Shown: in pieces, positions 11,244 through 42,232 of the stretch
Position numbering within the stretch: position 1 is the stretch's first letter
Layout of the letters: each line of letters begins with the position of its first letter
Virus record (IMG/VR): IMGVR_UViG_2859793810_000007
Reading direction: 5' to 3' (one strand)
From: a virus
Lineage: Duplodnaviria > Heunggongvirae > Uroviricota > Caudoviricetes
DNA length: 55,029 nt
The notes under the pieces: generated by a model
What the model saw: only the letters and a program-made list of their open reading frames with translations
Told to the model about the DNA's origin: nothing
Databases searched by the model: none
Program-made: the position numbers and the translations under genes

Positions 11244-11572
11244 CAGTTCACCACCTGTTCAAAATCGGCCGTTACAGTCACCCATAACGCCCCCACGCTT
11301 GCCGACCATTTACGACAAACCACCCTGATCAGTTTCCAGTCATAAGGTGGCGTCCACTGAAATGCGCGGACGCCACCGTGCCGTTCCAGAAAGGCTTTTA
11401 AAGATGGGTGTTCACCTTTACGAACACGTATCGTCACGCTGTAAGTCGACAACTGGTTATTCAGTCCCGCCGCACGACGCTGTTCATAACCATCGCCCAG
11501 CTTCACTGTCACCACTTTCGGCTCTGATACCACATTCATATCCGGGCGCACTTTCCAGTGAAACGTCTCCAT
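11243..11572 (-). CDS. M: minor tail protein M
   Basis: 109 aa matching lambda gpM. Confidence 0.9.
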   Translation of the reverse strand: METFHWKVRPDMNVVSEPKVVTVKLGDGYEQRRAAGLNNQLSTYSVTIRVRKGEHPSLKAFLERHGGVRAFQWTPPYDWKLIRVVCRKWSASVGALWVTVTADFEQVVN

Positions 11573-14500
11573 TACCGGTATGCTCCACTTAACCGGCCAC
11601 CATCACGGGCCTGCTGTTGCATAAAGTCCGCGGCCGCTTTTTTCCCGAGGTCATAAACCACCTTCAGGGCAGCCGGACCTATCTGCCCGTTCGTGCCGTC
11701 GTTATTGATCTCAATGTTGTACTGCGGGGCAAACATCACCATGCCTGAACCACCAGTATCCGCCACAACCCCCAGCTTACCATCAGCACCGCGACGCAGT
11801 GGCAGAATGGCTTCAGGTCCCGCTTCCCCCATCACACCCGCGCCTTTTGCAAAAGCAAAAAACGTCGGACGGTTAACCACCGTGCCACTGTAGCGACTCA
11901 AATCAGCAGACTGGTAAACACCGCCATCAGCATTAGTCGTGAAGCCGAATAAAGAACCGACGCCCTTTACCGCCTGCATCATGGCCATCTGTGCCATAAT
12001 TCTGGCCATATCTGACAACAGGGAAGAGGTGAAGGATTTAAAATTCAGCTTACCGGTGGTACAGAATGTCGCCAGTGCATTACCGGCACTGCTGAATGCC
12101 ACTGTAAACATCTGTTCTGCCGTTCCCGCCGCATTATCCGCATCCGCCGTAAAATTCTGAAACGCCCGCATGGCACCGTTTTTCCAGTCGCCCTGCGCCA
12201 CTTCCAGTTCCTGCCAGTAGCGTTTGTTTTCATTCAGTTGTCGCTTCAGGCTCCCCTTCAGCACCTCCTCAGCCCTCCGGTAGTCCTCCGTCCCGTAAGT
12301 GCCTTTCTGGCGACTGTCATTCTCAAGCTGTTGCAACTGTTGCCGGTATTCCTGCCGGATGCGCAACTGTGCCTGGTAGCGCTGCCGCTGCTTATCCCCC
12401 ATACCTGCAGTGGCAATATCCAGATTGTGCTGCTCACGCAGTGCACGTTCTTTGTCTGCCAGCTGGCTGGTCAGCTGAACCGTTTTTTTTTCTCAGGTCG
12501 TTAAGCGCTGTCTGTTTCTGCAGCTCCTGCTGTTTCACATCCAGCAGCGTCAGCGCCTGAATCAGCTCATTCTTACGGGCCAGCACACTCTTTTCATCTG
12601 CCGTCAGCTTTTTCCCGTCCAGGTCGCTGATGCGCTGCTGCAGGGCCAGAAGCTGTTTATGCGCTTCAGTCATCCTTTCAGTGGCAATGCCTGCTGACTG
12701 TCTGGCAGCAGCAATCTGCCCTTCCACCTGTGCCTGCTGCTGACTGTACTGCAGCAATAACCGGGTGGCCTCATCATTACGGGTTGCCCGTGTATTTTTC
12801 TTAATGGCTTTTTCGTAACGTTCATTTTCACGCTGTATCGCCGCATCCCTGACAGCCTGGTCGGCGTACTGCATGGCATTAATACGCGCAATTTCCCGCT
12901 GATGTCGTGCAGCTTCCGTTTCATTCATCCGGTTCAGCGCGGCATTTTCAGCATTCCGGCGTTTCTGTTGCTCCTGGTAATTCCGTTCTGCCTGCGCTTT
13001 TGCATCCTGCAAATCCTTCCGGCGTTTTTTCTCCTGAAGATCGTTAAGACGCTGCTGATCGTACTCCACCTGTGTGGAGGCGTTTGTCCACGGATATTTT
13101 TTCGCGCGCTGAATTTTTTCCTGTAACGCATCAATCTGCGCATCCAGCGAGTCTTCACGACCAATATTCATGGCCGCATCCCAGAACTGCTTCCACCAGT
13201 CAGACAAGGTTTGCAGCGTACTACCCAGCGCATTGAGATTATTATCAATATCAGATGTGCGTTTACCGGTTTCCTCTGCCAGCGCAGACATGGCGATCCG
13301 GGCCGCATCACTGGACCGCCCCTGCTCCCCAAGGACGCGTATCTGCTCAAGCTGAGTGGCATTCAAAAAATGCAGCGCATTGTCCAGCGCCTTCGCGGCA
13401 TTTACAGGATCATCCTTCAGCCGCTTAAACTGATTTATGGTATCGCTGACCGACTGGCCAACCGATCGCTCCATCTGTGCGGCAGCTTTCGCCACCATAC
13501 CAATATCGTTTCCATGAAATGCCCCACTGCCCACCACCTGTGCCAGCGCACCGGCTGCCGCATGTTGCGTGATACCATTCCCGGATATGGCCCGGCTGAG
13601 TTTCCACAACTGCCCGACAGTGACACCGGCATAATGTCCCGTCAGCGCCAGCTGACGGTTAAATTTCTCGCCCTCCTTCCGGCCGTCATGCCAGGCTTTA
13701 CCCAGACCCAGGACCGCCGCGACAAGTCCGCCAATAACGCCGCCAGTCATCATGCCTTTCGGCGACATCAGTGCGCCTGTCCATCCGGCACGGTTAGCCA
13801 GCGTTATCCCGGATCCCCTCAGCGCACCAAAATTGCCTCGCGCCATCTGACTGATTAACACCCCCAGCTCCCGCCGGGCTGCCGCACTTTTCAGCCCCAG
13901 CGAATGTGTGGCTTTTCCTGCCCGCTCCATTTTGCGGATATACACTTCTGCAGCACTGCTTACCCCCAGCTGAGCCGCCCTGGCGCGAAGCAACTCAGAA
14001 GACGACAGATTCTGGCGGGTTGCCTGCTCTTTAAGCTGGCGGATAAACGCCGCTTTCTGCCGGGTGGCCTGTTCCTCTGCCTGCGTCAGGGCACGGGTTT
14101 TCGCCGTGATCTCCGAAATCAGCGCCAGATAATCCTGCTGACCAACCCCGCCACTGTTTCTGGCCTGTCGGATCTGCTGCTGAATACGCTGTAATTCCTG
14201 AAGCCCCGCACCGGCCTGTTTCACACTGTCAATCTGGCGATAAAAGGCGGCAGCCGCTTTATCCTGCGCCTCCGCCAGTGCCCTGGCCTGCGCCTGTTCC
14301 TCGCGCATTTTCTGATTCAGGGCATCCACGCGCAGACGGGTTTGTTCCACCTCACGGGCCATGCGTTCATGAGCCCGTGCATTCTTCTCCACCGTCTGCG
14401 CATGGGCTGATGCTGCTGTTGCAGCCGAAGAAGCCGCCTGCATTGTCTGCCGGGCCGCCTGAGTCTGACGCTCCATAAAACGCTGCATACGGGCAGAAGA

Positions 14501-14614
14501 CCGTTCTGCATCGCTGGCTGCACCATTCAGAAGGTTTTTGATACGGGGAATTTCATTTTTAAACTCTGCCGCATCAATCCCCAAATCAATGACCAGGTTG
14601 GCTATCTGGTCCAT
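11572..14614 (-). pseudogene. H: tail tape measure protein H, split by a frameshift
   Basis: N-part 12434-14614 (coiled-coil, Gly-rich) and C-part 11572-12402 (ends ...NNDGTNGQIGPAALKVVYDLGKK... like lambda gpH); frames diverge at the 9-A run (plus-strand T9, 12483-12491). Confidence 0.8.
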
Positions 14615-15368: not shown

Positions 15369-16109
15369 TTATGGTGCGCTGACGGTCACCGCAGCCACTG
15401 CCACAAACTCTCCGTCAGAGGTCATGCCCACGATGCTGACACTGCCCTGCTTCACGCCTTTCACCGTGGCCACAAGCCCGCTCAGGGTCACCGAAGCAGT
15501 CTGAGGATCTGACGAATGCACACTGATCGCTTTGTCACTGGCCCCGTCAGGTTTTACTGTAAAGGTCAGTGTGGTGGTTGCTCCCGCTTTGACACTGACA
15601 GATGCCGGTGCCACCGTCAGTCCGGTAACACCCACGGTTTCAGTGCCTTCCTCTGCCAGATACGGACGCCCCACACCGCTGATTTTCACAGTGCGGGTCA
15701 TCACGTCTTTTGAGGCAATGGTTTTACCCAGTGAGCTCAGCCAGCCGCGGAAAACATCAACAGTGCCGTTGGGATATTTGATACGAAACGCGCAGACTTC
15801 ACCGGAGTCGAACAACTGAACCAGTTTTTTCTGCCCGCTGTCACCCGGACGACAGGCCAGCGTCGCCGAAGTATCACCAACGGATTTCTGCCCCTGGGTT
15901 GTCGTTTTCCAGTCTGCATCTTCATCATCGAGATAAGTGTCATCTTCTGCATCAGCGGTCATTTCGCCAGGTTGCAGATCCTTCACCATCGCAAGACGCA
16001 GCCAGTCAGTGTCCGACAAAGGGTTCGCAAACGCATCGCCGTTGCCGGTATACATCCAGAACGTTGTCCCCGCACCTTTCGTCTTTGCCAGTGGATTTGG
16101 TGTGGTCAT
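15369..16109 (-). CDS. V: major tail protein V (with C-terminal Ig-like domain)
   Basis: MTTPNPLAKTKGAGTTFW... matches lambda gpV; ATG at 16107-16109 preceded by GGAGG. Confidence 0.9.
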   Translation of the reverse strand: MTTPNPLAKTKGAGTTFWMYTGNGDAFANPLSDTDWLRLAMVKDLQPGEMTADAEDDTYLDDEDADWKTTTQGQKSVGDTSATLACRPGDSGQKKLVQLFDSGEVCAFRIKYPNGTVDVFRGWLSSLGKTIASKDVMTRTVKISGVGRPYLAEEGTETVGVTGLTVAPASVSVKAGATTTLTFTVKPDGASDKAISVHSSDPQTASVTLSGLVATVKGVKQGSVSIVGMTSDGEFVAVAAVTVSAP

Positions 16110-16119
16110 TACCACCTCC

Positions 16120-16521
16120 TTAATTCGTGTACGTGATCTGGTACGTGATTTCCGCCATCGCCCAGGTGGCCATCTCATTATCACGTTGATAGTTAAAACC
16201 GAGTGGGATCATGGTGTCGATGAGTCCGGAAAGCACCGGAATATCCTTCATGGCCGGAAATATGGTGTTCTCCATCCACGTATCCAGCTCAGAATCCGGC
16301 GCCTGTGCACGGACGAAAACGGCAATATGCAGAACAGCCTGCCAGTCGTCCTCATCCGTCATTTTTCCGGTGTACTGCGCATCACTCAGCCACACCGCCA
16401 CGGCGGGCAGTTCCTGCGCATCAATAAATGCCGGAAGCCCGTCAAAAAACGTGGCGCTGTCTCCACACTGTTCCCGAAGGCGTGCCAGCACGCTCTGACG
16501 GATTTGTGTGTGTCGGTTCAT
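16120..16521 (-). CDS. U: tail terminator protein U
   Basis: 133 aa matching lambda gpU. Confidence 0.9.
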   Translation of the reverse strand: MNRHTQIRQSVLARLREQCGDSATFFDGLPAFIDAQELPAVAVWLSDAQYTGKMTDEDDWQAVLHIAVFVRAQAPDSELDTWMENTIFPAMKDIPVLSGLIDTMIPLGFNYQRDNEMATWAMAEITYQITYTN

Positions 16522-19385: not shown

Positions 19386-20891
19386 TCATGGCATGGCCAT
19401 GAGCATTTTCACGTCCGCATCACCGTCTGCTGACGTCTGTGGCACGCCACCCTGTACCGCTGCCGGTGAATGGTTCGCCATGAAATGTTCAAACATGGCG
19501 GTTGTGGATGCAGAAACCGGTTCTGCCCTGCCTGAGGCTGCCGCCAGTACAGCCCGGGCATTCTCCACGGTCATCCCCGGACAGGCCGCCAGTTTTTCAG
19601 CCTGCGCCTCTGCCCCTTTTGCCTCATCCAGGGCCATAATCTGATCACGAAGTGAGGGTCCGGCATTCGCCTGCGGTGAAGCAGCCAGAATCGGACGGGC
19701 TTTTTCCACCGTCATCTCCGGCATCGCCGCCAGCGTTGCCGCCAGTTGTTCACGTCCTTTCGCCTCTTCACATGCCATAATGCGATCGGCTTCACTCTGC
19801 GCAGATACACCAGATTGTTGCGGTGCCGCCACGGCCAGAATCGCCCGGGCCTGCTCAACGCTCATACCCTGTTGCCCTGCCAGCATCGTGGCCAGTTGTT
19901 CACGTCCTTTCGCTTCCTGACACGTCAGGATCCCCATCACTCGCTGGTTCTCCTGCGCGGCAGCCTCCGTTGCAGTTAATTGCGGCATAGTGCCTCCTGT
20001 ATCGTGTGTGTTCAGCGTCGCAGCCATCACGCTGATGGCGTCCGACGCATTGATTAATTCATCCGCCAGTTCGGCCTCAATACCGGACTGACCTTCAAAA
20101 ACGGCGGCCTCTGTTCCCATAACCGCATCCACAGATAAACCGGTATACATCGCCACTTTTTCAGCAAACATCCGGCGCGCCGCATCAATGCGCTGCTGCA
20201 TGTCCTGGCGAACCTTTGCTGGCAGGGATTCAAACTGATTGCCATCCACCTTGTGCGATCCGGCGTAAATCAGCGTGATATCCACACCGGCCTGTGCCAG
20301 ATGACCGGCATAGCTGACATGGCCCATCATCACCCCAATGGAGCCGATACGGGATGTCTGGGTAACCAGCCGTCGGGAGCAGGCCGATGCCAGTAACATG
20401 GCGGCTGAACAGGCCGTGTCATTGCACAGTGCCCAGACAGGCTTCAGCTGCCGGAGACGGTAAATCATGTCAGCGCAGTCAAACGCGCCGGTGGCCTGCC
20501 CGCCAGAACTGTCAATGTCCAGCAGTACGCCCCGTACCTGAGTGTCCGCCATTGCCTGCTGAAGACAGGCGACAATGCCGTCATAGCCAGTCATTCCGGA
20601 AAATGGCCGCATGCCACCCAGCCGGTGTACCAGCGTGCCGGTCACCGGCAGTACAGCAATACCGTTCACCACCCGGTAAACACGGGCAGGTCGTTTGCCT
20701 CCGGCCATGTACTCGTCCGTTTCAGCCAGCATCCCGGGAGCGTCAAGCTGTACCTGCTGTTGCGGTACCGAAAGGCTTGCTGCGCCCATCTCACGCCCGA
20801 GCGCGCAAAAGAAAACCCGCGCATAGGCGGGCTCCAGAAGCAGCGGCTCATTGAATGCCGCAGCGATAATATGTGAAAGATTACGTCTCAC
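19386..20891 (-). CDS. C: prohead protease/scaffold C (with in-frame Nu3)
   Basis: 501 aa; AFNEPLLLEPAYARVFFCAL...GSIGVMMGH... matches lambda gpC (S49-type protease). Confidence 0.85.
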   Translation of the reverse strand: MRRNLSHIIAAAFNEPLLLEPAYARVFFCALGREMGAASLSVPQQQVQLDAPGMLAETDEYMAGGKRPARVYRVVNGIAVLPVTGTLVHRLGGMRPFSGMTGYDGIVACLQQAMADTQVRGVLLDIDSSGGQATGAFDCADMIYRLRQLKPVWALCNDTACSAAMLLASACSRRLVTQTSRIGSIGVMMGHVSYAGHLAQAGVDITLIYAGSHKVDGNQFESLPAKVRQDMQQRIDAARRMFAEKVAMYTGLSVDAVMGTEAAVFEGQSGIEAELADELINASDAISVMAATLNTHDTGGTMPQLTATEAAAQENQRVMGILTCQEAKGREQLATMLAGQQGMSVEQARAILAVAAPQQSGVSAQSEADRIMACEEAKGREQLAATLAAMPEMTVEKARPILAASPQANAGPSLRDQIMALDEAKGAEAQAEKLAACPGMTVENARAVLAAASGRAEPVSASTTAMFEHFMANHSPAAVQGGVPQTSADGDADVKMLMAMP

Positions 20892-22474
20892 GTGATGTTG
20901 TCTCCTCTTCCGGCCTGCGACTCTCCGCTATCTGCTGCTGATACGCCTGGGCTATCCACACCGGACGTGAGAGTCCGGCTTTTTCGCGCTCTGCGGATTC
21001 CCTGACCTGCTGGCGGAAAATGTCCTGATAATCTTCGCCCATCAGTGCCAGTTCTTTCTCATACGTGCTCAGTCCGGCCTCAATGCGCATCACCGATTCC
21101 TGGACCTCCTTGAGCCCGTCAATGGCCATTCTTCCGGAGCTAATCCACTCTGCCCGTGACCAGGCTGAACGCGCCTGGTAAAAATCAAAACGCGCCCGTG
21201 GCGGACGAATAATCCCCCGAAGAAGCGCCTCTTCCAGCCAGCAGGAAAACATCTGCGTGGCCAGCCGGGCCGCAATAAATTTTCGCCGCCCCATAAAATA
21301 GCGCCACGACTCATTGGCGGAGGCGCGGGCACTTGAGTAACTGACCTTCGAGTAATCACGGGACAACTGTTCGTAGGAAACGCCAAGACCGGCTGCAATA
21401 TACCGCAGCAGCGCCTGTTCAAGCGCCGAAAATCCATTGTCTGAATCCTGCGCTGTCTGCAGGTTCAGCGCATCGCCAGGAAAAAAGGTGCGGAATTTTA
21501 ACACCGCCCAGCGTCACGTTATTCGTGTCATACCAGCGGGTGAACTTCTCCAGAATATTAATAAGCGGATTATCCTGCTGACCTTGCGGTGCCCCCGCGA
21601 TATATTCAAATGCCTTTTCGGTATCAAGTTCACTTTCGATTGTGGCTGCATACATCGCCTTCACAATGGCCGACTGAAGCTGCGTGGCCTGCAGGGAGTC
21701 CAGCATCTTCATCCGCTCCATTACGCTGTAAAACTGATTAGCCCCACGGGTCTGCCCGTCCTCCACCGGCTCAAAAATATGCAGCATGGCCGGACGCCCG
21801 GTGGGAAGCTCACGCGGGATCCGCTCCCAGCGTCCGGCACCAGAGAACGGAAAATCATCCTCACAGATATGGTACGCAATCGCCCGCCCATACCGATCGA
21901 CCTCAACCCCGGCCCGCAGAAAGTGGTTCCCCATACCGTGTCCTGGCGTGTCCACCCGTTTCGGACTCACGGCTTTAAAACGCGTACGGAATAACTGCGT
22001 GGTTTCCGTATCCCAGACCGGCTGCACAAAGATTTCGCCGTTAAAGGCATGCACGCCCACCCCTTCACGGATAAATTCCGTAAACGTGCGTTTCCCTTCC
22101 ACGTCGATCTCGCCAAACATTCCTTCTGCGTATTCCGACCAGGCTGCTTCCACCTCCCCGACAAAACTTTTTGCCGTGGTCTCCCGCATCCCCAGCCAAC
22201 GCCAGTTCAGACGGTAGCTGATAAGAAACATGTGCCCGACGATATGATCCTTATGCAGGGCCACCGCATTAGCCGCGATACCGTTATTGCGCACCAGATC
22301 ATCTGCCCGGGCATTCCCCAGACGCAATGCAGGCAACAGGGCCGCATCGGCACTCTGCGCCGGTGGTAACCACTCTGCCATTTGCCCGCCAAATCCTGCG
22401 CCGCCTCCGTTGTAGCTGAGACTCTCACGAAGCGGAACGCCGTTCACATCAATCAGGACAGGCGTTCGTTTCAT
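20881..22474 (-). pseudogene. B: portal protein B, split by a frameshift
   Basis: 351-aa and 207-aa ORFs both match lambda gpB; junction GGVKIPHLF / PGDALNLQTAQD falls on the T6 run (plus-strand A6, 21481-21486). Confidence 0.8.
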
Positions 22475-22674: not shown

Positions 22675-24585
22675 TCACTCCTCCGGACAGCTTCGCTGCC
22701 AGTTCTTCAAGGGTCGGTTGTGCAGTTGCATCCTTGCGGGATGCAACTGCACAGCCAGATCAAGTTGCCAGCGTTGCACGGACACACGTAATGCCGCATA
22801 GGCATACACCAGGCAGTCCAGCGCTTCGTTACGCCGCTTTTTGTTATCCCACAACAGACGCATCTTTCCTTTTTCCCACTTTTCCACCAGTTCCTCCGCC
22901 ACCAGTTGTTGTGCCTCTGTCTGCGAAAAAATCTCCGGATTATCAGGAAAGCGGATGGCATACGATGTGGCCTCATTCACAGGGGTGGGATCGGCCTTCA
23001 TTCGGGCATAGAGAATTTCTTTTGCGGTATCCGTCCCCACCTCACACAGATACACACCCCGCTGATTGCGGGTTTTCGGCATGGTGATCACCGGCTTGCC
23101 ATAGACAGAGGCACCTTTTACCGGCAGTACCCGGAAAATACCGTGTTTTTTTGACCTCTGATACACGATTTCGCCATCGATCCCCCCGATATCCCAGCAG
23201 ACACGGGAAATGGTCATTTCGGTACCGTCTGCATGGCGGTATTTTTTATTGATCGCCGCATCCACACGTAACAGCGTCTCTTCCTCATCAGGACGTCCCA
23301 TGATGATGATTTTATCCACCAGAAAGGCTTCCTCTCCCGGAGCCCACCCCCAGACATACATCTCAAAACGGTTTCGCTGCGAGTCAATGCCCGCCGTCAG
23401 ATAAACCACCCGGACAGGCACCGTTGCCGTGTAAGGCACAACCTTATCCATCAGTACCTGGTGATCGAGTTTTTCGCCCACGGCCTCTTCCCAGGTCTCG
23501 CCCAGCGTGGTGTTCACAAAAGTTTTCACGCCGTTGGGATCTTTCAGTGCATCCAGCCAGTCACAGACTATCTGTACCCTGGTGGTGAACGGACTGTACG
23601 CCGTCCATATATGGAAAGTGATGGAGCGCGGCGGCGGAATTTCATTACCCGAAGCACTGAAAAACGTCAGACCGTCACACGTCCACATCCCGGTATTGTC
23701 ACAAATCCAGCGCCCCCCGGTCTGATCAAGTTCAGACTGACGGATCACGCAGCCATTATGTTCACACAGGTAATACACCGTTTCCGGTTTACCCTTCTCC
23801 CATTTCAGGCCAAACGACGTCGCATCATCGCCAAACTTCAGATACTGCTCCTCCCCGCAATGAGGGCAAGGGACATAAAACCGCATGAAATGCGCAGATT
23901 CATTCGCAGCTTTTTCAATCTGACAGGAGCCTTTAATTTTTGGCGTTGAACCGCGTATGGATTTTGGCCATACCGAACCTTCAATACGTTTATCGCCAAG
24001 CAGTGTTGGCGAACCTTCTTTTTCCACATCCGGTTCAAACGAGGAGAGTTCGTCATAGCAGACCACATCGACAGATTTTTCACGGTAGTTTTTGGCAGCA
24101 GCACCACCCAAACACCAGAACCCCACACCAGAGGAAAAACGCTTCAGTGTGAGCGTATTATCCCGGTGTTTCCGGCCCAGCCAGGGAGAAAGTTTTTTCA
24201 GGCAAGGAACATCACGAATTGTTGCTTCCACGTGAGACTTCATAAAATCTTCAGCAGCTGAGTCCGTCGGCTGAAAAAGAAGAGTGTTGCGGGATTTGTG
24301 CTCAATAAAATACCCGATCACACCAAGCACCATTTTTGTATAACCAACACGGGCAGATTTAATCAGGTTAACTGTACGAATCTCGTCATTGCCCATGCAG
24401 TTCATGATGGCGACCTGAAACTGCAGCGTTTTCCATTCCCCCTCACCGTATGACGATTCTTTAGGCAGGTAATAATTTTGATCGGCCCATTCTACAGCCG
24501 TCACCGGCAATACCCTGACCAGTGGCTGCAGTGCGATAGTGACTGCCACCATCATATTACTCAGTTGTTGTTCTGATATATTCAT
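22675..24585 (-). CDS. A: terminase large subunit A
   Basis: MNISEQQLSN... and long collinear match to lambda gpA; ATG at 24583-24585. Confidence 0.9.
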   Translation of the reverse strand: MNISEQQLSNMMVAVTIALQPLVRVLPVTAVEWADQNYYLPKESSYGEGEWKTLQFQVAIMNCMGNDEIRTVNLIKSARVGYTKMVLGVIGYFIEHKSRNTLLFQPTDSAAEDFMKSHVEATIRDVPCLKKLSPWLGRKHRDNTLTLKRFSSGVGFWCLGGAAAKNYREKSVDVVCYDELSSFEPDVEKEGSPTLLGDKRIEGSVWPKSIRGSTPKIKGSCQIEKAANESAHFMRFYVPCPHCGEEQYLKFGDDATSFGLKWEKGKPETVYYLCEHNGCVIRQSELDQTGGRWICDNTGMWTCDGLTFFSASGNEIPPPRSITFHIWTAYSPFTTRVQIVCDWLDALKDPNGVKTFVNTTLGETWEEAVGEKLDHQVLMDKVVPYTATVPVRVVYLTAGIDSQRNRFEMYVWGWAPGEEAFLVDKIIIMGRPDEEETLLRVDAAINKKYRHADGTEMTISRVCWDIGGIDGEIVYQRSKKHGIFRVLPVKGASVYGKPVITMPKTRNQRGVYLCEVGTDTAKEILYARMKADPTPVNEATSYAIRFPDNPEIFSQTEAQQLVAEELVEKWEKGKMRLLWDNKKRRNEALDCLVYAYAALRVSVQRWQLDLAVQLHPARMQLHNRPLKNWQRSCPEE

Positions 24586-24864
24586 CGAGTAAATCCGGTA
24601 ATTTATCCCCCGCACGCGCGCACTGATTCGCTCCCTTAGCAATAAGGATTTTCAGATGATCAATATGACGCGGCGTTAAATCCGGGAACTGTCGTTGCAT
24701 GGACAAAGGAATGGAGTCAAGCGTACTGGATAAAGCCATCGCCAGCTTACTAAGGGCAAAAATACAAAATCCGGTATCGATAAGATTTCCTTTTGACACC
24801 TGATTTTTTAACTGCTGTGCGACAGCCTGTTCTGCGGTCAGTTCCCATCTGGCAATGAGTAGTT
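24557..24864 (-). pseudogene. Nu1: terminase small subunit Nu1, 3-prime fragment (5-prime part replaced by IS600)
   Basis: ...TGFCIFALSKLAMALSSTLDSIPLSMQRQFPDLTPRHIDHLK... matches the C-terminal half of lambda Nu1; ORF runs into the IS600 end. Confidence 0.75.
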
Positions 24865-24907
24865 TGAGGTGTACTGGCAATAGCGGACACTACCATTTGT
24901 TCTTTTT

Positions 24908-25726
24908 TTAAGCAGCCATCTGATGATATTTTTCCCTGAAGGCTGCCGGGGAGATATTCCCCAGACGAGAGTGACGACGCTGACGATTGTAGAAAATCTC
25001 AATGTATTCCCGTATTACTGAGATGGCTTCATCCCGGTTATTAAAACGATAGTGGCTCAGGCTCTCATTTTTCAGCGTTCCCCAGAAGCTTTCCATCGGA
25101 GCATTGTCGTAACAGTTACCTTTACGCGACATTGATGTTTTCAGACCAGACTGCTCCTGTATGACCCGGTAATCGTATGCGCAGTACTGTGAACCTCGAT
25201 CAGAGTGGTGGATTAGCCCGGCAGGTGGGCGCTGGCTCCTGAGCGCCATAAACAGGGCTTTACCTGTCAGCTCTTTTGTCATGCGCTCTCCCATGGCGTA
25301 GCCGACAATTTCACACGTATAAACATCTTTGATGCCAGCGAGGTACAACCATCCCTCCTGTGTGGCAACATACGTCAGGTCCGCCACCCAGACCTGATTT
25401 GGTGCTGTAGGAGCGAACGTCTGGTTCAGCAGATTTGGCGCAACTGGCAGATTGTGGTTCGGGTTCGTAGTCGCTCTGAACTTGCGTTTCTGCTTACAGC
25501 GTAGCCTTAGCTCCTTACGAAGACGTGCCAGTCGGTCACGACCAACGATGATGCCATTCTCTGCCAGCTCCGTCTGGAGCCGCCGGGTTCCATATGTTTC
25601 GCGAGTGCGGATATGTGCCACCTTAATCTCCGGTTTTAGCCGCTCATCACTTTGTTTTCTGTCTGAGGGTTCATGCTGTACCCAGTTGTAATAACCGCTC
25701 CTGGATACACCAAATACCTGACACAT
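24908..25726 (-). CDS. IS600 transposase OrfB (DDE integrase domain)
   Basis: 272 aa; ...HSDRGSQYCAYDY... IS3-family catalytic region. Confidence 0.9.
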   Translation of the reverse strand: MCQVFGVSRSGYYNWVQHEPSDRKQSDERLKPEIKVAHIRTRETYGTRRLQTELAENGIIVGRDRLARLRKELRLRCKQKRKFRATTNPNHNLPVAPNLLNQTFAPTAPNQVWVADLTYVATQEGWLYLAGIKDVYTCEIVGYAMGERMTKELTGKALFMALRSQRPPAGLIHHSDRGSQYCAYDYRVIQEQSGLKTSMSRKGNCYDNAPMESFWGTLKNESLSHYRFNNRDEAISVIREYIEIFYNRQRRHSRLGNISPAAFREKYHQMAA

Positions 25727-25761
25727 CGCTTCAATGGGAAATTGTTGTCGCCATTGTTCGA

Positions 25762-26064
25762 TTAACGCGTATTTTTCAGCGACTCCTGTGCAAAATACGC
25801 TGTTGCTTTTTTTAATATATCTCGCTCAAGGCGAGCTTCATTTAACGCCTTACGCAGTTGCAGAATTTCAGATTCCAGTTCAGCCAGCGTGCGGGAACCA
25901 GGAGTACCGAGCCCTTTTCTGGCGGCGGTAACCCATTGTCCTAAAGTGCCTTCAGGAAGAGATAATCGGGAAGCGCCTTCACTGATCGAAAGTTGATTTT
26001 CAAGAACCGTTCTGACAGCTTCGGCTTTGAACTCTTTAGAGTAACGTTGGGTTTTTCTGCTCAT
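25762..26064 (-). CDS. IS600 OrfA (HTH/leucine-zipper)
   Basis: 100 aa MSRKTQRYSKEFKAEAVRTVLENQ...; A AAA AAA slippery motif near its 3-prime end for OrfAB fusion. Confidence 0.9.
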   Translation of the reverse strand: MSRKTQRYSKEFKAEAVRTVLENQLSISEGASRLSLPEGTLGQWVTAARKGLGTPGSRTLAELESEILQLRKALNEARLERDILKKATAYFAQESLKNTR

Positions 26065-26128
26065 TATTAGCTCCTTCTGATGCCATTCTATTTCAGGAAG
26101 GAGTGTCCGTTAAACTCAGGCTACCTCA

Positions 26129-26530
26129 CCCGTCCCGGATACCGAGAACGTTTCGTCCAGCAACTGGAGAGAGTTCGACGGTGGCATCATTGCCCATGCC
26201 GGAGGCGCTGGAGGTTTCGGCTGAGGATGGCACAGGGCATTTTCCTTTGACGAGCACCCGACCACCATTATCAAGCTTGCGCCGAAGAGCATCATTTTCA
26301 GCTTTCGCATCAGCTAACTCCTTCGTGTATTTAGCATCGAGTGCATCAGCATCACGCTGGCGCTGCTGCATGTCAGTAATGGTTGCGTTCGCCAGCTTCA
26401 GTTCTCCGGCGTTTTTGTCGCGCTGCTCTTTGTAGGTAATGGCGTTATCACGGTAATGATTAACAGCCCATGACAGGCAGACGATGATGCAGATAACCAG
26501 AGCGGAGATAATCGCGGTGACTCTGCTCAT
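26129..26530 (-). pseudogene. Rz: i-spanin Rz, 3-prime truncated by IS600 (Rz1 o-spanin embedded at 26129-26310, also truncated)
   Basis: [34 protein letters not shown]... like lambda Rz; +1-frame [24 protein letters not shown]...PPAPPAW is Rz1-like (lipobox, Pro-rich); both read into the IS. Confidence 0.7.
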
Positions 26531-28266: not shown

Positions 28267-28341
<75 letters not shown>

Positions 28342-28344
28342 ATA

Positions 28345-28420
<76 letters not shown>

Positions 28421-28422
28421 GC

Positions 28423-28499
28423 TGGCCCACCACCGAGGACTCGAACCTCGCACCGTCAACTTAGAAGGTTGATGCTCTATCCGGATGAGCTAGTGGTGG
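28423..28499 (-). tRNA. tRNA-Arg (anticodon UCU)
   Basis: rc CCACCACTAGCTC...TCAACCTTCTAAGTTGA...GGTGGTGGGCCA; anticodon loop CUUCUAA. Confidence 0.75.
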
Positions 28500-28500
28500 T

Positions 28501-28577
28501 TGGTGGCCCTTGCTGGACTTGAACCAGCGACCTGGCGATTATGAGTCGCTCGCTCTGACCAACTGAGCTAAAGGGCC
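28501..28577 (-). tRNA. tRNA-Ile2-like (anticodon CAU; could be Met)
   Basis: rc GGCCCTTTAGCTCAGTTGGTCAGAGCGAGCGACTCATAATCGC...; close to E. coli ileX-type sequence. Confidence 0.75.
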
Positions 28578-31965: not shown

Positions 31966-32057
31966 CGCTGTCACCTCAGAATGTCTGAAGTGGCACACTG
32001 AATTTGGCCACCTGAACAGAGGTGATATGCTCACCTCAGAACAACACAGGTGCTCCA

Positions 32058-33226
<1,169 letters not shown>

Positions 33227-33234
33227 CCACTTCA

Positions 33235-33944
33235 TTGCGCAGTTCTTCACTTGCTGAGGAAAAAACAAGCGTTCCATCCTTCTCGACATACCCATCCGTT
33301 TCAAGCAGACCACACAGCATGCCTATACGCGTTGATTTATTTGCGGAAAAAAACACACGAGGGATGAATTTGTTTTTTGCTGTGCACCCCATTAGTCCAT
33401 AACCTCGCAGGGTCTCCATGAGTGGATTTACCTGACCACGCGCCGTTGATATCAGCCAGTCCTTACCATCTCCAGAGAAGTTGTAATCAGGCAGTTCAGC
33501 CTTCATACGCTCGATCATGTATGGCTCGACGTTTGAAAACTTCACGCTCCCATTGCTAAGACTACCATCCCCGAGAAGGGAGCCGATAACCCATGCTAAT
33601 GGCTCTGAGTGGTCGCCAAAGTCACCAGTTATTTCAGGAATCCTAACGCCATTTTTGTGCCTCTTCGTTTCACTCAACCGCTTCAACCCGAAGGTATCTA
33701 TCACGCGGCGTTTCTCGCCTTTCGTGAATCCACGACTAGTGACCTCCCATAGGTGATCGCCTGCGCAATCAACATAACGACCATCTTCAAATGTGACTCG
33801 GTAAACATCTCTAACACCCTGCGGGAATATCCCAGTGACAGTTGACGGATTGCCGTCTACTGACGCCACCTGATCGCCAATTTTTACATTCCCGTGAGTA
33901 GTCCATGTCCCATCAGCTAAAAGAATAGGCTCATTCAGTGGGCA
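33235..33944 (-). other. intein remnant (Hint N-terminal block plus LAGLIDADG homing-endonuclease motifs), C-terminal splicing region missing
   Basis: block A-like CPLNEPILLADGT (compare CFAKGTNVLMADGS of a yeast VMA intein); LAGLIDADG-type motifs AWVIGSLLGDGSL (33558-33596) and IGMLCGLLETDGYV (33285-33326). Confidence 0.65.
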
Positions 33945-35060
33945 TGCCTTTCCGTGACCGTGCACACCATTGACCAGCGTCAACTCTGCCTCACGGAACT
34001 GGAATTTATCTGCCAGAGATTCCCACGGTGGATTAAACAGATACTGCTGCTTGCCGTAGAAAGCGTTGATAGTGTCCTGGTAAAACTCTCGCGCACTGTA
34101 GAGTTCTTCAGGATCGAAGTAGGATGCCGTGCCGATGTACTGCCAGATTTCATCCTCGGTAACACCGTTCATCAGGCATTCGTTGATGTCTTTGTACGGC
34201 AGAGTAACAAGACGGCAACGATGTTCACCGAGTCGGCTTACGATTTCCCTTGCGGCTTCACGACCAACATCATCAACGTCCATCGAGATGAATATTTCCT
34301 CAAACCTGTCGAGGTTGTGATACTCAAACTCAATCCACTGTTGCTTAGCGCCTTTCCCGCCACCAAACGGCACGGATAACGCCGAGATGCCGTATTGCGC
34401 ATAGCTCATACAATCAATTTCGCCTTCGCAAAGCACAACCACCCTCACGCCAGCGTCCAGAGCCTGCCATCCGAACAGGCAAGGTTCGCAATCACCTTCT
34501 GCCATAATGACTTTCTTCCCGTCCGGGCGCTCAGTGCTGATTCGCTTGACCTGCAACAACTCACCATCGCGTTTGTACGGAAGCACCAGAGCATCCAGTT
34601 CTCGTTCTCCATTCCACACCTTGCCGCTGACAACCTCGTAGCGCTTTACGACTTCTGGCGATATGCCACGCGATTGCAGGTACTCAAGATGGGATTCTGT
34701 TCTGGTAACGTAGCGGGCGATTTTCTTACGATCAGGTCTGGAGAATTTCTTCTCACGTCTGGCATCGAAATGGTGATCGTCATCCTTGATACCGAGAAAT
34801 GCTTTCGCTTCCTGCATAGCCTGATGCAGGTTAATTCCACGACATGCCATCCACAAATCAAGCATGTCACCGCCGTCTCCCTCAGCGAAATCAGCCCATT
34901 TTTTCTTGCCGATAAGGTTGACCTTAAGGCTGTTTCCCTTGTCACCGTTGACGTTACCGGCAACCCACTCATGCCCCTCTATCTTGCCGTTTGGCAACAG
35001 GTGCGGAGCCACCCTGTCAACCTGCGCCCAAAGCAGGTCGCTAAGTTCACTTGGCCTCAT
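33235..35060 (-). pseudogene. T7 gp4-like primase-helicase interrupted by an intein and 3-prime truncated by IS911
   Basis: TOPRIM motifs VVLCEGEIDCMS and ISMDVDDVG (34251-34448); P-loop-like NGVHGHGKA (33945-33968) immediately followed by Cys-initiated intein; ORF runs into IS911 right end. Confidence 0.7.
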
Positions 35061-37277: not shown

Positions 37278-37352
<75 letters not shown>

Positions 37353-37355
37353 ATA

Positions 37356-37430
<75 letters not shown>

Positions 37431-37432
37431 GC

Positions 37433-37509
37433 TGGCCCACCACCGAGGACTCGAACCTCGCACCGTCAACTTAGAAGGTTGATGCTCTATCCGGATGAGC
37501 TAGTGGTGG
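37433..37509 (-). tRNA. tRNA-Arg (UCU), second copy
   Basis: identical to 28423-28499. Confidence 0.7.
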
Positions 37510-37510
37510 T

Positions 37511-37587
37511 TGGTGGCCCTTGCTGGACTTGAACCAGCGACCTGGCGATTATGAGTCGCTCGCTCTGACCAACTGAGCTAAAGGGCC
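37511..37587 (-). tRNA. tRNA-Ile2-like (CAU), second copy
   Basis: identical to 28501-28577. Confidence 0.7.
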
Positions 37588-39460: not shown

Positions 39461-39529
39461 CCACTTCAAAGAATTAAAGCAACCTATTGTGACAGGCAGC
39501 GATAACAGTAAATCACAGGAAGCATAATC

Positions 39530-40294
39530 ATGGCAAAACCGGACTGGGAGGCCATCGAATCGGCATACCGGGCCGGAGTCCTTAGCCTCCGTGATATAGG
39601 CGAGAAATACGGCGTTACAGAAGGGGCTATCAGGAAGAGGGCCAAAAAGCTTGATTGGGCACGCAGTGGCGGTACGCAGGTTTGCAAAAATGGTACGCAA
39701 AAAAGGAAAGTGCGTACCAGCAGAAAGCCTGCCATTACTGGCCTTACACAAAAAAGTACGCAACTAAAAACAGAATCTACACCGGATACGAAACCGATAC
39801 GCGGAATGCGTACCGATCCCCCGACTAACCCATTCCAACCCGGTAACCAGCAGGCATTAAAACACGGTGGTTATGCCCGTCGCCTTCTGCTCAAAGATGA
39901 GGTGATAGAGGACGCTAAAGCGTTGACGCTCGAGGACGAATTATTTCGCCTTCGTGCTAACAACCTTGTCGCTGCAGAGAATATTGGTCGGTGGTTGGTG
40001 TCGCTGGAAGATGCTAATGGGGACCAGGAAAGGAAGATGCTGATTGAAAATATCAGCGCCGCCGAGAAAGCAATGATGCGCAATACAGTTCGTATTGAGT
40101 CCATCGTTGGCACGCTTGCGACGGTAGGAAAAATATTTGCTGATACAGCCTACCGCAAGGCCGCCACTGATAAGGTGTCTCTGGAGGCTGATCGTCTTCG
40201 CCGTGATGCAGGTATTGATGATGGCAATGGAGAGCGTGACCTCAATGACTTCTACTCTGACATCCAAACCGACGCTGAATCCGGCTTTACGTAG
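39530..40294 (+). CDS. terminase small subunit-like protein (N-terminal HTH)
   Basis: 254 aa; HTH LSLRDIGEKYGVTEGAIRKRAKK; overlaps start of the terminase large subunit. Confidence 0.65.
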   Translation: MAKPDWEAIESAYRAGVLSLRDIGEKYGVTEGAIRKRAKKLDWARSGGTQVCKNGTQKRKVRTSRKPAITGLTQKSTQLKTESTPDTKPIRGMRTDPPTNPFQPGNQQALKHGGYARRLLLKDEVIEDAKALTLEDELFRLRANNLVAAENIGRWLVSLEDANGDQERKMLIENISAAEKAMMRNTVRIESIVGTLATVGKIFADTAYRKAATDKVSLEADRLRRDAGIDDGNGERDLNDFYSDIQTDAESGFT

Positions 40295-41003
40295 TTTCTG
40301 GACTATGCGGGCACGTAACAAAGTGCTTTATGGTGGTCGGTCATCGTCAAAATCATGGGATGCCGCTGGCATTGCCATATTTCTGTCGAATAAATACACC
40401 CTGCGTTTTTGTTGTGCCCGTCAGATCCAGAATAAAATCGAAGAGTCGGTGTATACCCTGCTCAAAATTCAGATAGACAGGTTTGGTCTGCGGCACCGTT
40501 TCCGTATTCTGAACAACAAAATCATTAACCGGGTTACTGGCTCGGAATTTGTTTTTTATGGATTATGGCGCAACATCGAAGAAATTAAGTCACTGGAGGG
40601 GATCGATATGTTGTGGCTGGAAGAAGCCCACGCACTGACGGAATACCAGTGGAAAATTCTGGAGCCAACGATCCGTAAAGAGGGTTCGGAATGCTGGTTC
40701 ATATTCAACCCCGGACTTGTTACTGATTTCGTCTGGCGCAACTTCGTTGTTGATCCGCCCGAAGGCACTCTCATCCGCAAAATTAACTATGACGAAAATC
40801 CGTTTCTGTCTGACACCATGCTTAAGGTTATCGACGCGGCGCGACGCCGTGATCCGGATGGTTTTAAACATGTGTATGAGGGCGTTCCGGAGTCTGATGA
40901 TGATGCGGCAATTAGACTGGCCCCCTGAATCTCCAGACAACCAGTATCACTTATTTAAGTGATAGTCTTAATACTAGTTTTTAGACTAGTCATTGGAGAA
41001 CAG

Positions 41004-41369
41004 ATGATTGATGTCTTAGGGCCGGAGAAACGCAGACGGCGTACCACACAGGAAAAGATCGCAATTGTTCAGCAGAGCTTTGAACCGGGGATGACGGTCT
41101 CCCTCGTTGCCCGGCAACATGGTGTAGCAGCCAGCCAGTTATTTCTCTGGCGTAAGCAATACCAGGAAGGAAGTCTTACTGCTGTGGCCGCCGGAGAACA
41201 GGTTGTTCCTGCCTCTGAACTTGCTGCCGCCATGAAGCAGATTAAAGAACTCCAGCGCCTGCTCGGCAAGAAAACGATGGAAAATGAACTCCTCAAAGAA
41301 GCCGTTGAATATGGACGGGCAAAAAAGTGGATAGCGCACGCGCCCTTATTGCCCGGGGATGGGGAGTAA
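41004..41369 (+). CDS. insC: IS2 OrfA (InsC)
   Basis: [41 protein letters not shown]... Confidence 0.85.
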
Positions 41370-42232
41370 GCTTAGTCAGCCGTTGTCTCCGGGTGTCGCG
41401 TGCGCAGTTGCACGTCATTCTCAGACGAACCGATGACTGGATGGATGGCCGCCGCAGTCGTCACACTGATGATACGGATGTGCTTCTCCGTATACACCAT
41501 GTTATCGGAGAGCTGCCCACGTATGGTTATCGTCGGGTATGGGCGCTGCTTCGCAGACAGGCAGAACTTGATGGTATGCCTGCGATCAATGCCAAACGTG
41601 TTTACCGGCTCATGCGCCAGAATGCGCTGTTGCTTGAGCGAAAACCTGCTGTACCGCCATCGAAACGGGCACATACAGGCAGAGTGGCCGTGAAAGAAAG
41701 CAATCAGCGATGGTGCTCTGACGGGTTCGAGTTCTGCTGTGATAACGGAGAGAGACTGCGTGTCACGTTCGCGCTGGACTGCTGTGATCGTGAGGCACTG
41801 CACTGGGCGGGGACTACCGGCGGCTTCAACAGTGAAACAGTACAGGACGTCATGCTGGGAGCGGTGGAACGCCGCTTCGGCAACGATCTTCCGTCGTCTC
41901 CAGTGGAGTGGCTGACGGATAATGGTTCATGCTACCGGGCTAATGAAACACGCCAGTTCGCCCGGATGTTGGGACTTGAACCGAAGAACACGGCGGTGCG
42001 GAGTCCGGAGAGTAACGGAATAGCAGAGAGCTTCGTGAAAACGATAAAGCGTGACTACATCAGTATCATGCCCAAACCAGACGGGTTAACGGCAGCAAAG
42101 AACCTTGCAGAGGCGTTCGAGCATTATAACGAATGGCATCCGCATAGTGCGCTGGGTTATCGCTCGCCACGGGAATATCTGCGGCAGCGGGCTTGTAATG
42201 GGTTAAGTGATAACAGATGTCTGGAAATATAG
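41327..42232 (+). CDS. insD: IS2 OrfB (InsD) transposase
   Basis: 301-aa DDE integrase-type ORF overlapping orfA. Confidence 0.85.

Follow-up and report, generated by a model that had tools for sequence, protein, structure and literature searches.

The gene for the portal protein of a lambda-type prophage is split into two reading frames at a run of six T in the DNA studied here, and genes J and H of the same prophage are broken at homopolymers as well. This raises the question whether such breaks come from systematic sequencing error at homopolymers or from real decay of a prophage that no longer needs to make particles, the two alternatives between which the original prediction had left the matter. 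We address this question for the whole stretch of 55,029 nucleotides of the IMG/VR record IMGVR_UViG_2859793810_000007 (the window), and in particular for portal gene B.

One extra T splits portal gene B

Over 22,181 and 19,197 bp the window shares 100% identity with CP026788.1 of Shigella flexneri. At the break in B the coding strand reads CAC CTT TTT TCC TGG, and the frame shifts after His-Leu-Phe, at about residue 330 of 530. The T6 run (Table 1) lies within positions 21476-21492, where the frameshift had been predicted. Base-level alignment to the two closest loci, the near-identical relatives L001 and L002, mapped the single extra base of the gene to this run, which is A5/T5 in both of them. 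The 1594-bp gene was matched over at least 80% of its length by 1850 E. coli genomes. The match was 1593 bp long in all 40 E. coli genomes listed and in 18 of the 20 phage records listed, phage 21 among them. One T too many does split the gene, as had been claimed.

The upstream frame had been thought to end at ...SWRC. In fact it continues 19 codons further, and the resulting 351-aa fragment ends in ...TLGGVKIPHLFSWRCAEPADSAGFRQWIFGA followed by the stop. The downstream ORF begins, from its mechanical GTG start, with MLKFRTFFPGDALNLQTAQD... and contains ...KFRTFFPGDALNLQTAQD..., and the wild-type junction peptide across the break is ...IPHLFPGDALNLQ.... When one T was removed from the run in silico, a portal protein of 530 aa was obtained that matches the Pfam profile PF05136 over positions 2-354 with 326.5 bits. 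Before this repair no single frame gives the full-length match; the N-terminal fragment covers profile positions 2-288 and the C-terminal fragment 288-354. The repaired protein also aligns with the solved lambda gpB (PDB 8k38) over residues 5-527 (E = 4e-213). In this alignment the break coincides with the HL(F/M)PGD motif, and the lambda motif ...GGAKVPHLMPGDSLNLQTAQD that had been quoted is confirmed. B is flanked by the genes for gpW and the S49 protease/scaffold protein, a conserved head-gene neighbourhood. Portal B is thus a pseudogene of the lambda-family portal PF05136.

Among phages, the portal of phage 21 (gene 4), called 'head-tail preconnector gp5' in older annotations, belongs to the same PF05136 family and has 93.5% DNA identity to portal B. 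The gene order of phage 21 and lambda matches that of the window, Nu1-A-W-B-C/Nu3-D-E-FI-FII. The window differs from these phages in that its portal is split by the extra T and in that the element has no cos and no 5' end of Nu1.

In E. coli, the prophages closest to that of the window are lambdoid, linked to ipaH and found in EIEC-like strains (CFSAN029787 and FDAARGOS_943). They have the same structural module and a portal that is 99.8-99.9% identical, but unlike the window they carry it intact, with T5. The repaired portal differs from the intact EIEC prophage portal in one residue only, S445G. In CFSAN029787 ipaH lies just past the tail-fibre genes and the gene set appears complete. FDAARGOS_943 (L002) has independent lesions of its own, namely IS insertions and a frameshift in FII (C7 to C6 at L002 position 25165). 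Lesions among the related prophages also include IS insertions in V and FII, and in L017 (CP026810.1) the gene calls for M-L, I and ipaH are split or fused. The related prophages bear differing, independent lesions; decay went separately in each lineage.

Table 1. Features of the defective prophage (window coordinates) and the assemblies with an intact portal
Feature	Position	Strand	Remark
ipaH, LRR + NEL E3 ligase effector, 587 aa	1060..2823	+	Intact cargo, tail-fibre end of prophage
Tail-fibre gene, one AGTC unit lost (3 copies to 2) at 3933-3940	3577..5030	-	
Tail-tip gene J, split, C5 to C4 at 7102-7105	5719..9197	-	Rare allele
Tape-measure gene H, split, T8 to T9 at 12483-12491 (A9 on coding strand)	11572..14614	-	Rare allele
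Portal gene B pseudogene, phage 21/lambda family	20881..22474	-	1594 bp, compared with 1593 bp in intact relatives
C-terminal portal fragment ORF, 207 aa, mechanical GTG start	20881..21504	-	Overlaps N-terminal ORF
N-terminal portal fragment ORF, 351 aa	21419..22474	-	Last 21 residues out of frame
T6 run, coding strand (A6 on +)	21481..21486	-	Ancestral T5
Terminase large subunit A, 636 aa rather than 642	22675..24585	-	3' end frameshifted
Nu1 (terminase small subunit), 3' remnant	24554..24865	-	First 201 bp of Nu1 and cos missing
IS600 copy	24865..26130		Replaces about 2.5 kb of intact relative: cos, 5' Nu1, upstream genes
Intact-portal assemblies L021-L030 (CP037996.1; Logan SRR31555xxx, SRR16936277)			Single-base homopolymer losses

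The T6 allele is fixed in S. flexneri

The exact 351-aa portal product, its out-of-frame tail included, is present on at least 1000 contigs (2587 index blocks). The names that carry it include S. flexneri 2a strain 301 and also strain 2457T. For 2146 of the 2587 blocks the contigs top out at 5-10 kb, a size typical of draft assemblies. Moreover, T6 was found in all ten other S. flexneri loci that were fetched, AE014073.1 included. Because the allele occurs in so many contigs and in every one of these loci, T6 in portal B is a real mutation fixed in S. flexneri and not a sequencing error. The ten loci form two sub-lineages that differ in their terminase allele and in portal residue 445; the portal of one sub-lineage departs from the intact EIEC portal by nothing but the extra T. 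T6 predates the split of these two sampled sub-lineages. A 61-mer containing T6 was found in none of 5,426 complete E. coli genomes, and the five closest copies were each one gap off.

A homopolymer error of sequencing or assembly in a gene that is really intact was nevertheless worth weighing. The break sits in a mononucleotide run, the source is apparently a complete assembly of the long-read era (judging from its accession series), and T5 is on record in about 20 contigs of S. flexneri type. Against this stand the distribution of T6, the fact that the window is only 1-2 indels away from independent assemblies in 15-21 kb, and the clear signature of homopolymer-loss errors in the T5 contigs themselves. 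An error at portal B is rejected on the allele distribution; this explanation is effectively refuted and we give it next to no probability. Thus, for B, the decay side of the original alternative is supported and the error side is not. Resolution of the break to an intact frame, which had been named as the outcome that would speak against it, is not what the ten other S. flexneri loci show at this site. The lesion is already known in kind, as the records of strain 301 show two separate ORFs. No description of this specific lesion was found in the literature searched, with the original S. flexneri genome papers lying outside the scope of that search.

Intact portals on the S. flexneri background

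An intact portal of S. flexneri type (P0092, S445) was found in about 20 contigs. Counted by run length, this gives T5 in about 20 contigs, mostly from indel-prone data, versus T6 in 2587 index blocks. The contigs that were compared had been chosen because their portal is intact, and they necessarily share the loss at 21486. Apart from that loss, every indel in them removes one base from a homopolymer of at least 6 bases, and the sites of these losses differ from run to run. The scale of the problem is clear from CP037996.1, which has 25 indels in 21.6 kb versus a single one in 2457T. We therefore read the intact S. flexneri portals as artefacts of homopolymer under-calling. Two of the contigs, L028 and L030, have an intact portal without any other indel, and a true revertant clone is possible behind them. 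Reversion, or an intact portal retained from the ancestor, is rejected as the probable reading for S. flexneri, although not in an absolute sense, since the carriers show the homopolymer-loss signature. In a few records sequencing error thus masks the portal pseudogene; it did not create the T6 of the window. Under-calling of homopolymers yields falsely intact genes, and an error of this kind can hide a real pseudogene and not just fake one.

The portal lies in a defective prophage

The defective lambdoid prophage in the window carries ipaH, and its head genes are of the phage 21 type. From left to right it consists of ybhB and ipaH, the structural module on the minus strand, an IS600 copy, and lysis, Q and replication genes up to about position 31985, beyond which IS elements form a mosaic with other phage remnants. 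The ipaH end of the prophage adjoins ybhB and bioA, and the early region is severed by IS elements beyond 31985. No alignment of cos or of the first 201 bp of Nu1 was obtained anywhere in the window. The junction between IS600 and Nu1 (24836-24895) is identical in 10 of 10 other S. flexneri loci, and the packaging origin and the small terminase subunit were therefore lost in the common ancestor of the sampled lineages. The portal, terminase A, H, J and the tail-fibre gene are all frameshifted.

Effector genes are known to sit at the tail-fibre end of lambdoid prophages, beside the attachment site (PMC3530523). Like the defective or 'grounded' prophages that keep their cargo, the element appears to have been immobilised by IS insertions, deletions and point lesions while its cargo gene stayed intact. 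We see no material difference from these, and the window prophage is a standard example of them.

J and H are not broken in the same way as B

According to the original prediction, J, H and B were alike in being broken at homopolymers. All three breaks do exist in the window, but they are not one phenomenon, as that of B is species-wide while those of J and H are rare. The exact truncated J product (C4) was found in about 6 records (4-6 contigs) and the exact truncated H product (T9) in about 3 records (2-3 contigs). H is intact in the ten other S. flexneri loci, and at the chromosomal site of the window prophage J (1159 aa) and H (1013 aa) are both unbroken in four further genomes. Compared with the window over 15,030 bp, the S. 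flexneri genomes L034 and L036 show no substitutions and only the indels in J and H. The two alleles occur separately in other records and together only in the CP026788.1 assembly. The T9 run in H is the longest homopolymer of the prophage. The breaks in J and H are either very recent slippage mutations or consensus errors. Each was also seen in one or more contigs of different origin with few indels, and this speaks for real alleles. The locus is more useful as a calibration case, since of three look-alike homopolymer frameshifts one is ancient and fixed and two are at strain level or artefactual.

Further lesions do not involve homopolymers

In terminase A the ancestral CGCCA is changed to AACT at 22745-22748, a net loss of one base. 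The change turns a 6-bp inverted repeat into one of 18 nt with 94% complementarity (arms at 22716-22733 and 22739-22756), and it bears the signature of quasi-palindrome correction by template switching. The AACT allele is shared by the window and 5 of the 10 other S. flexneri loci, and the 636-aa product was found on at least 1000 contigs. The tail-fibre product truncated by the loss of one AGTC unit is on record in 111 contigs. Changes of these two kinds are not made by sequencing errors. With a 4-bp repeat loss, a quasi-palindrome correction and IS insertions among the lesions, homopolymers are not the whole story of the decay.

A second, paralogous ipaH prophage, located at another site (L032, L035, L037 and L038), has the AGTC loss and the 367-aa tail-fibre fragment as well; there ipaH encodes 583 aa, and dinI, an isochorismatase gene, IS110 and aspS are found. 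That the loss is common to both ipaH prophages implies duplication or gene conversion between them.

Two further candidates were rejected. At the C7 run of FII (17307) the window and all S. flexneri loci are intact and it is L002 that is frameshifted. For gene K, where the calls are 199 and 247 aa, the full frame is open and there is no indel relative to L001. The lambda-type G-T slippery heptamer GGGAAAG was not found at the end of G in the window.

Substitutions in the structural genes look neutral in S. flexneri

If the breaks were real, relaxed selection had been expected across the structural genes. We counted substitution events from A to H in 11 S. flexneri copies and found 17 nonsynonymous and 7 synonymous events (omega about 0.76). 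This ratio agrees with a neutral site fraction of 0.76 (P = 0.63), whereas the fractions of 0.27-0.35 that would hold under purifying selection are rejected (P = 1e-5 to 4e-4). The latter fractions were derived from comparisons with the phage 21 and EIEC copies, for which pN/pS is 0.11-0.17; the control values are 0.11 against phage 21 and 0.14 against L001. The relaxed selection that had been predicted is thus seen within S. flexneri and is not seen against functional relatives. The estimate comes from just 24 events. Left out by judgement were an obvious tract of recombination in gene U (16168-16405), a linked pair of sites in gene V and the complex change in terminase A. Within the limits of this small sample, the data point clearly to neutral drift of the structural genes.

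Whole-gene pairwise dN/dS (0.4-0.5) was discarded in favour of event counting. It is misleading because the gene U tract dominates the counts. In this tract 22 differences lie within 240 bp between S. flexneri copies, and 2457T also differs from the window there. The linked differences in gene V are at 15852 and 16065. One gene U allele matches L001 and the other matches L002, and the tract is therefore the product of recombination or gene conversion inside the dead prophage.

Decay, recoding or a new role for the fragment

Directly observed were the T6 allele, its distribution, the common IS junction and the neutral substitution pattern. From these we propose that the ancestral T5 run gained one T, most likely by replication slippage. 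This would have left the 351-aa N-terminal fragment, with the C-terminal remainder either untranslated or separately read. An IS600-associated deletion removed cos and the 5' part of Nu1, probably before the portal was frameshifted, and in the window IS elements also cut off the early region. Without DNA packaging or particles the structural genes would drift neutrally and later lesions would pile up lineage by lineage. The frameshift would persist because nothing selects against T6 in an element without cos and 5' Nu1. Ordinary prophage decay, with a real and fixed portal frameshift in a defective ipaH prophage, is very probably the whole explanation. Its biological weight is small, as it adds one more pseudogene to a Shigella prophage remnant.

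T6 might instead be a recoding or phase-variable site that supplies a functional portal on demand. A +1 ribosomal slip on CUU UUU U, transcriptional loss of a U or reversible replication slippage would each restore HLFPGD, and indeed any one-base slip within the run regenerates the wild-type protein. The same holds for slippage genes such as S. flexneri mxiE (a U run) and the 'pseudo pseudogenes' with 9A or 9T, whose runs are about 9 nt long and conserved for function (PMC1088944). These resemble portal B in that the frame is broken at a mononucleotide run and would be repaired by a one-base slip. By contrast, the portal run has 6 nt, the element around it is dead, and selection on it is not apparent. 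[quoted passage not shown] In addition, reading of the sequence revealed neither a Shine-Dalgarno-like motif upstream nor a stop or rare codon in the A site. With a run of 6 nt, T5 in two relatives, uninterrupted 1593-bp homologues and no stimulator, the site does not look like one of programmed frameshifting or slippage. T6 is conserved across S. flexneri and intact T5 versions are occasionally recorded, which would agree with a switch. The conservation follows from the very low divergence (0-3 differences in 1.6 kb), and the T5 records look like artefacts. A portal would also be useless without cos and Nu1 and with a frameshifted terminase C-terminus, and the substitutions look neutral. We consider recoding highly improbable.

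A domesticated 351-aa fragment, for instance a dominant-negative subunit that poisons the portal rings of superinfecting lambda/21-like phages, seems only marginally less improbable. The fragment still has its native start and the larger part of the portal domain (profile 2-288), and in most genomes its sequence does not vary. This invariance has no statistical weight, since there are only 3 substitutions in the gene across 10 loci. The upstream part of the late operon is disrupted by IS600, and the neighbouring genes evolve neutrally. There is a very small chance that T6 reversibly switches to T5 in some clones or that the fragment acts in anti-phage portal interference. If so, the intact-portal runs would be real revertants, or the fragment would be a prophage-derived defence against lambda/21-like phages. 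We retain ordinary decay as the explanation for portal B.

For H the comparison with mxiE and the 'pseudo pseudogenes' is different, as its A9 run belongs to their length class, yet is a rare allele. By its length, the derived A9 would be in the class in which transcriptional slippage is appreciable (PMC1088944). Slippage there could return some of the H transcripts to the correct frame, which would resemble the 'pseudo pseudogenes'.

Other elements of the window

A cluster of four tRNA genes (Gly-tcc, Thr-tgt, Arg-tct and Met/Ile-cat) lies in the late region of the prophage at 28267-28577, and a second copy of it at 37278-37587 in an isolated late-region fragment between IS copies. On the minus strand, a 619-aa ORF (33201-35060) contains a Toprim domain and, more weakly, matches Hint (below the Pfam cut-off) and LAGLIDADG. 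This combination suggests a putative intein. Along 98% of its length the ORF matches a 'toprim domain-containing protein' from O157 and other prophages. The match is confined to query bases 1-1828, and ORFs of IS type are neighbours of the ORF. From about 39500 to 50900 there is a second, unrelated phage remnant with a DUF2213 gene and a major capsid gene, and with an IS2 copy at 40913-42243. An IS600 copy (47986-49252) is directly adjoined by an ORF for a Mu-type transposase (49249-50883). The second remnant has a portal gene of its own (PF06381, 42977-44443), which is intact.
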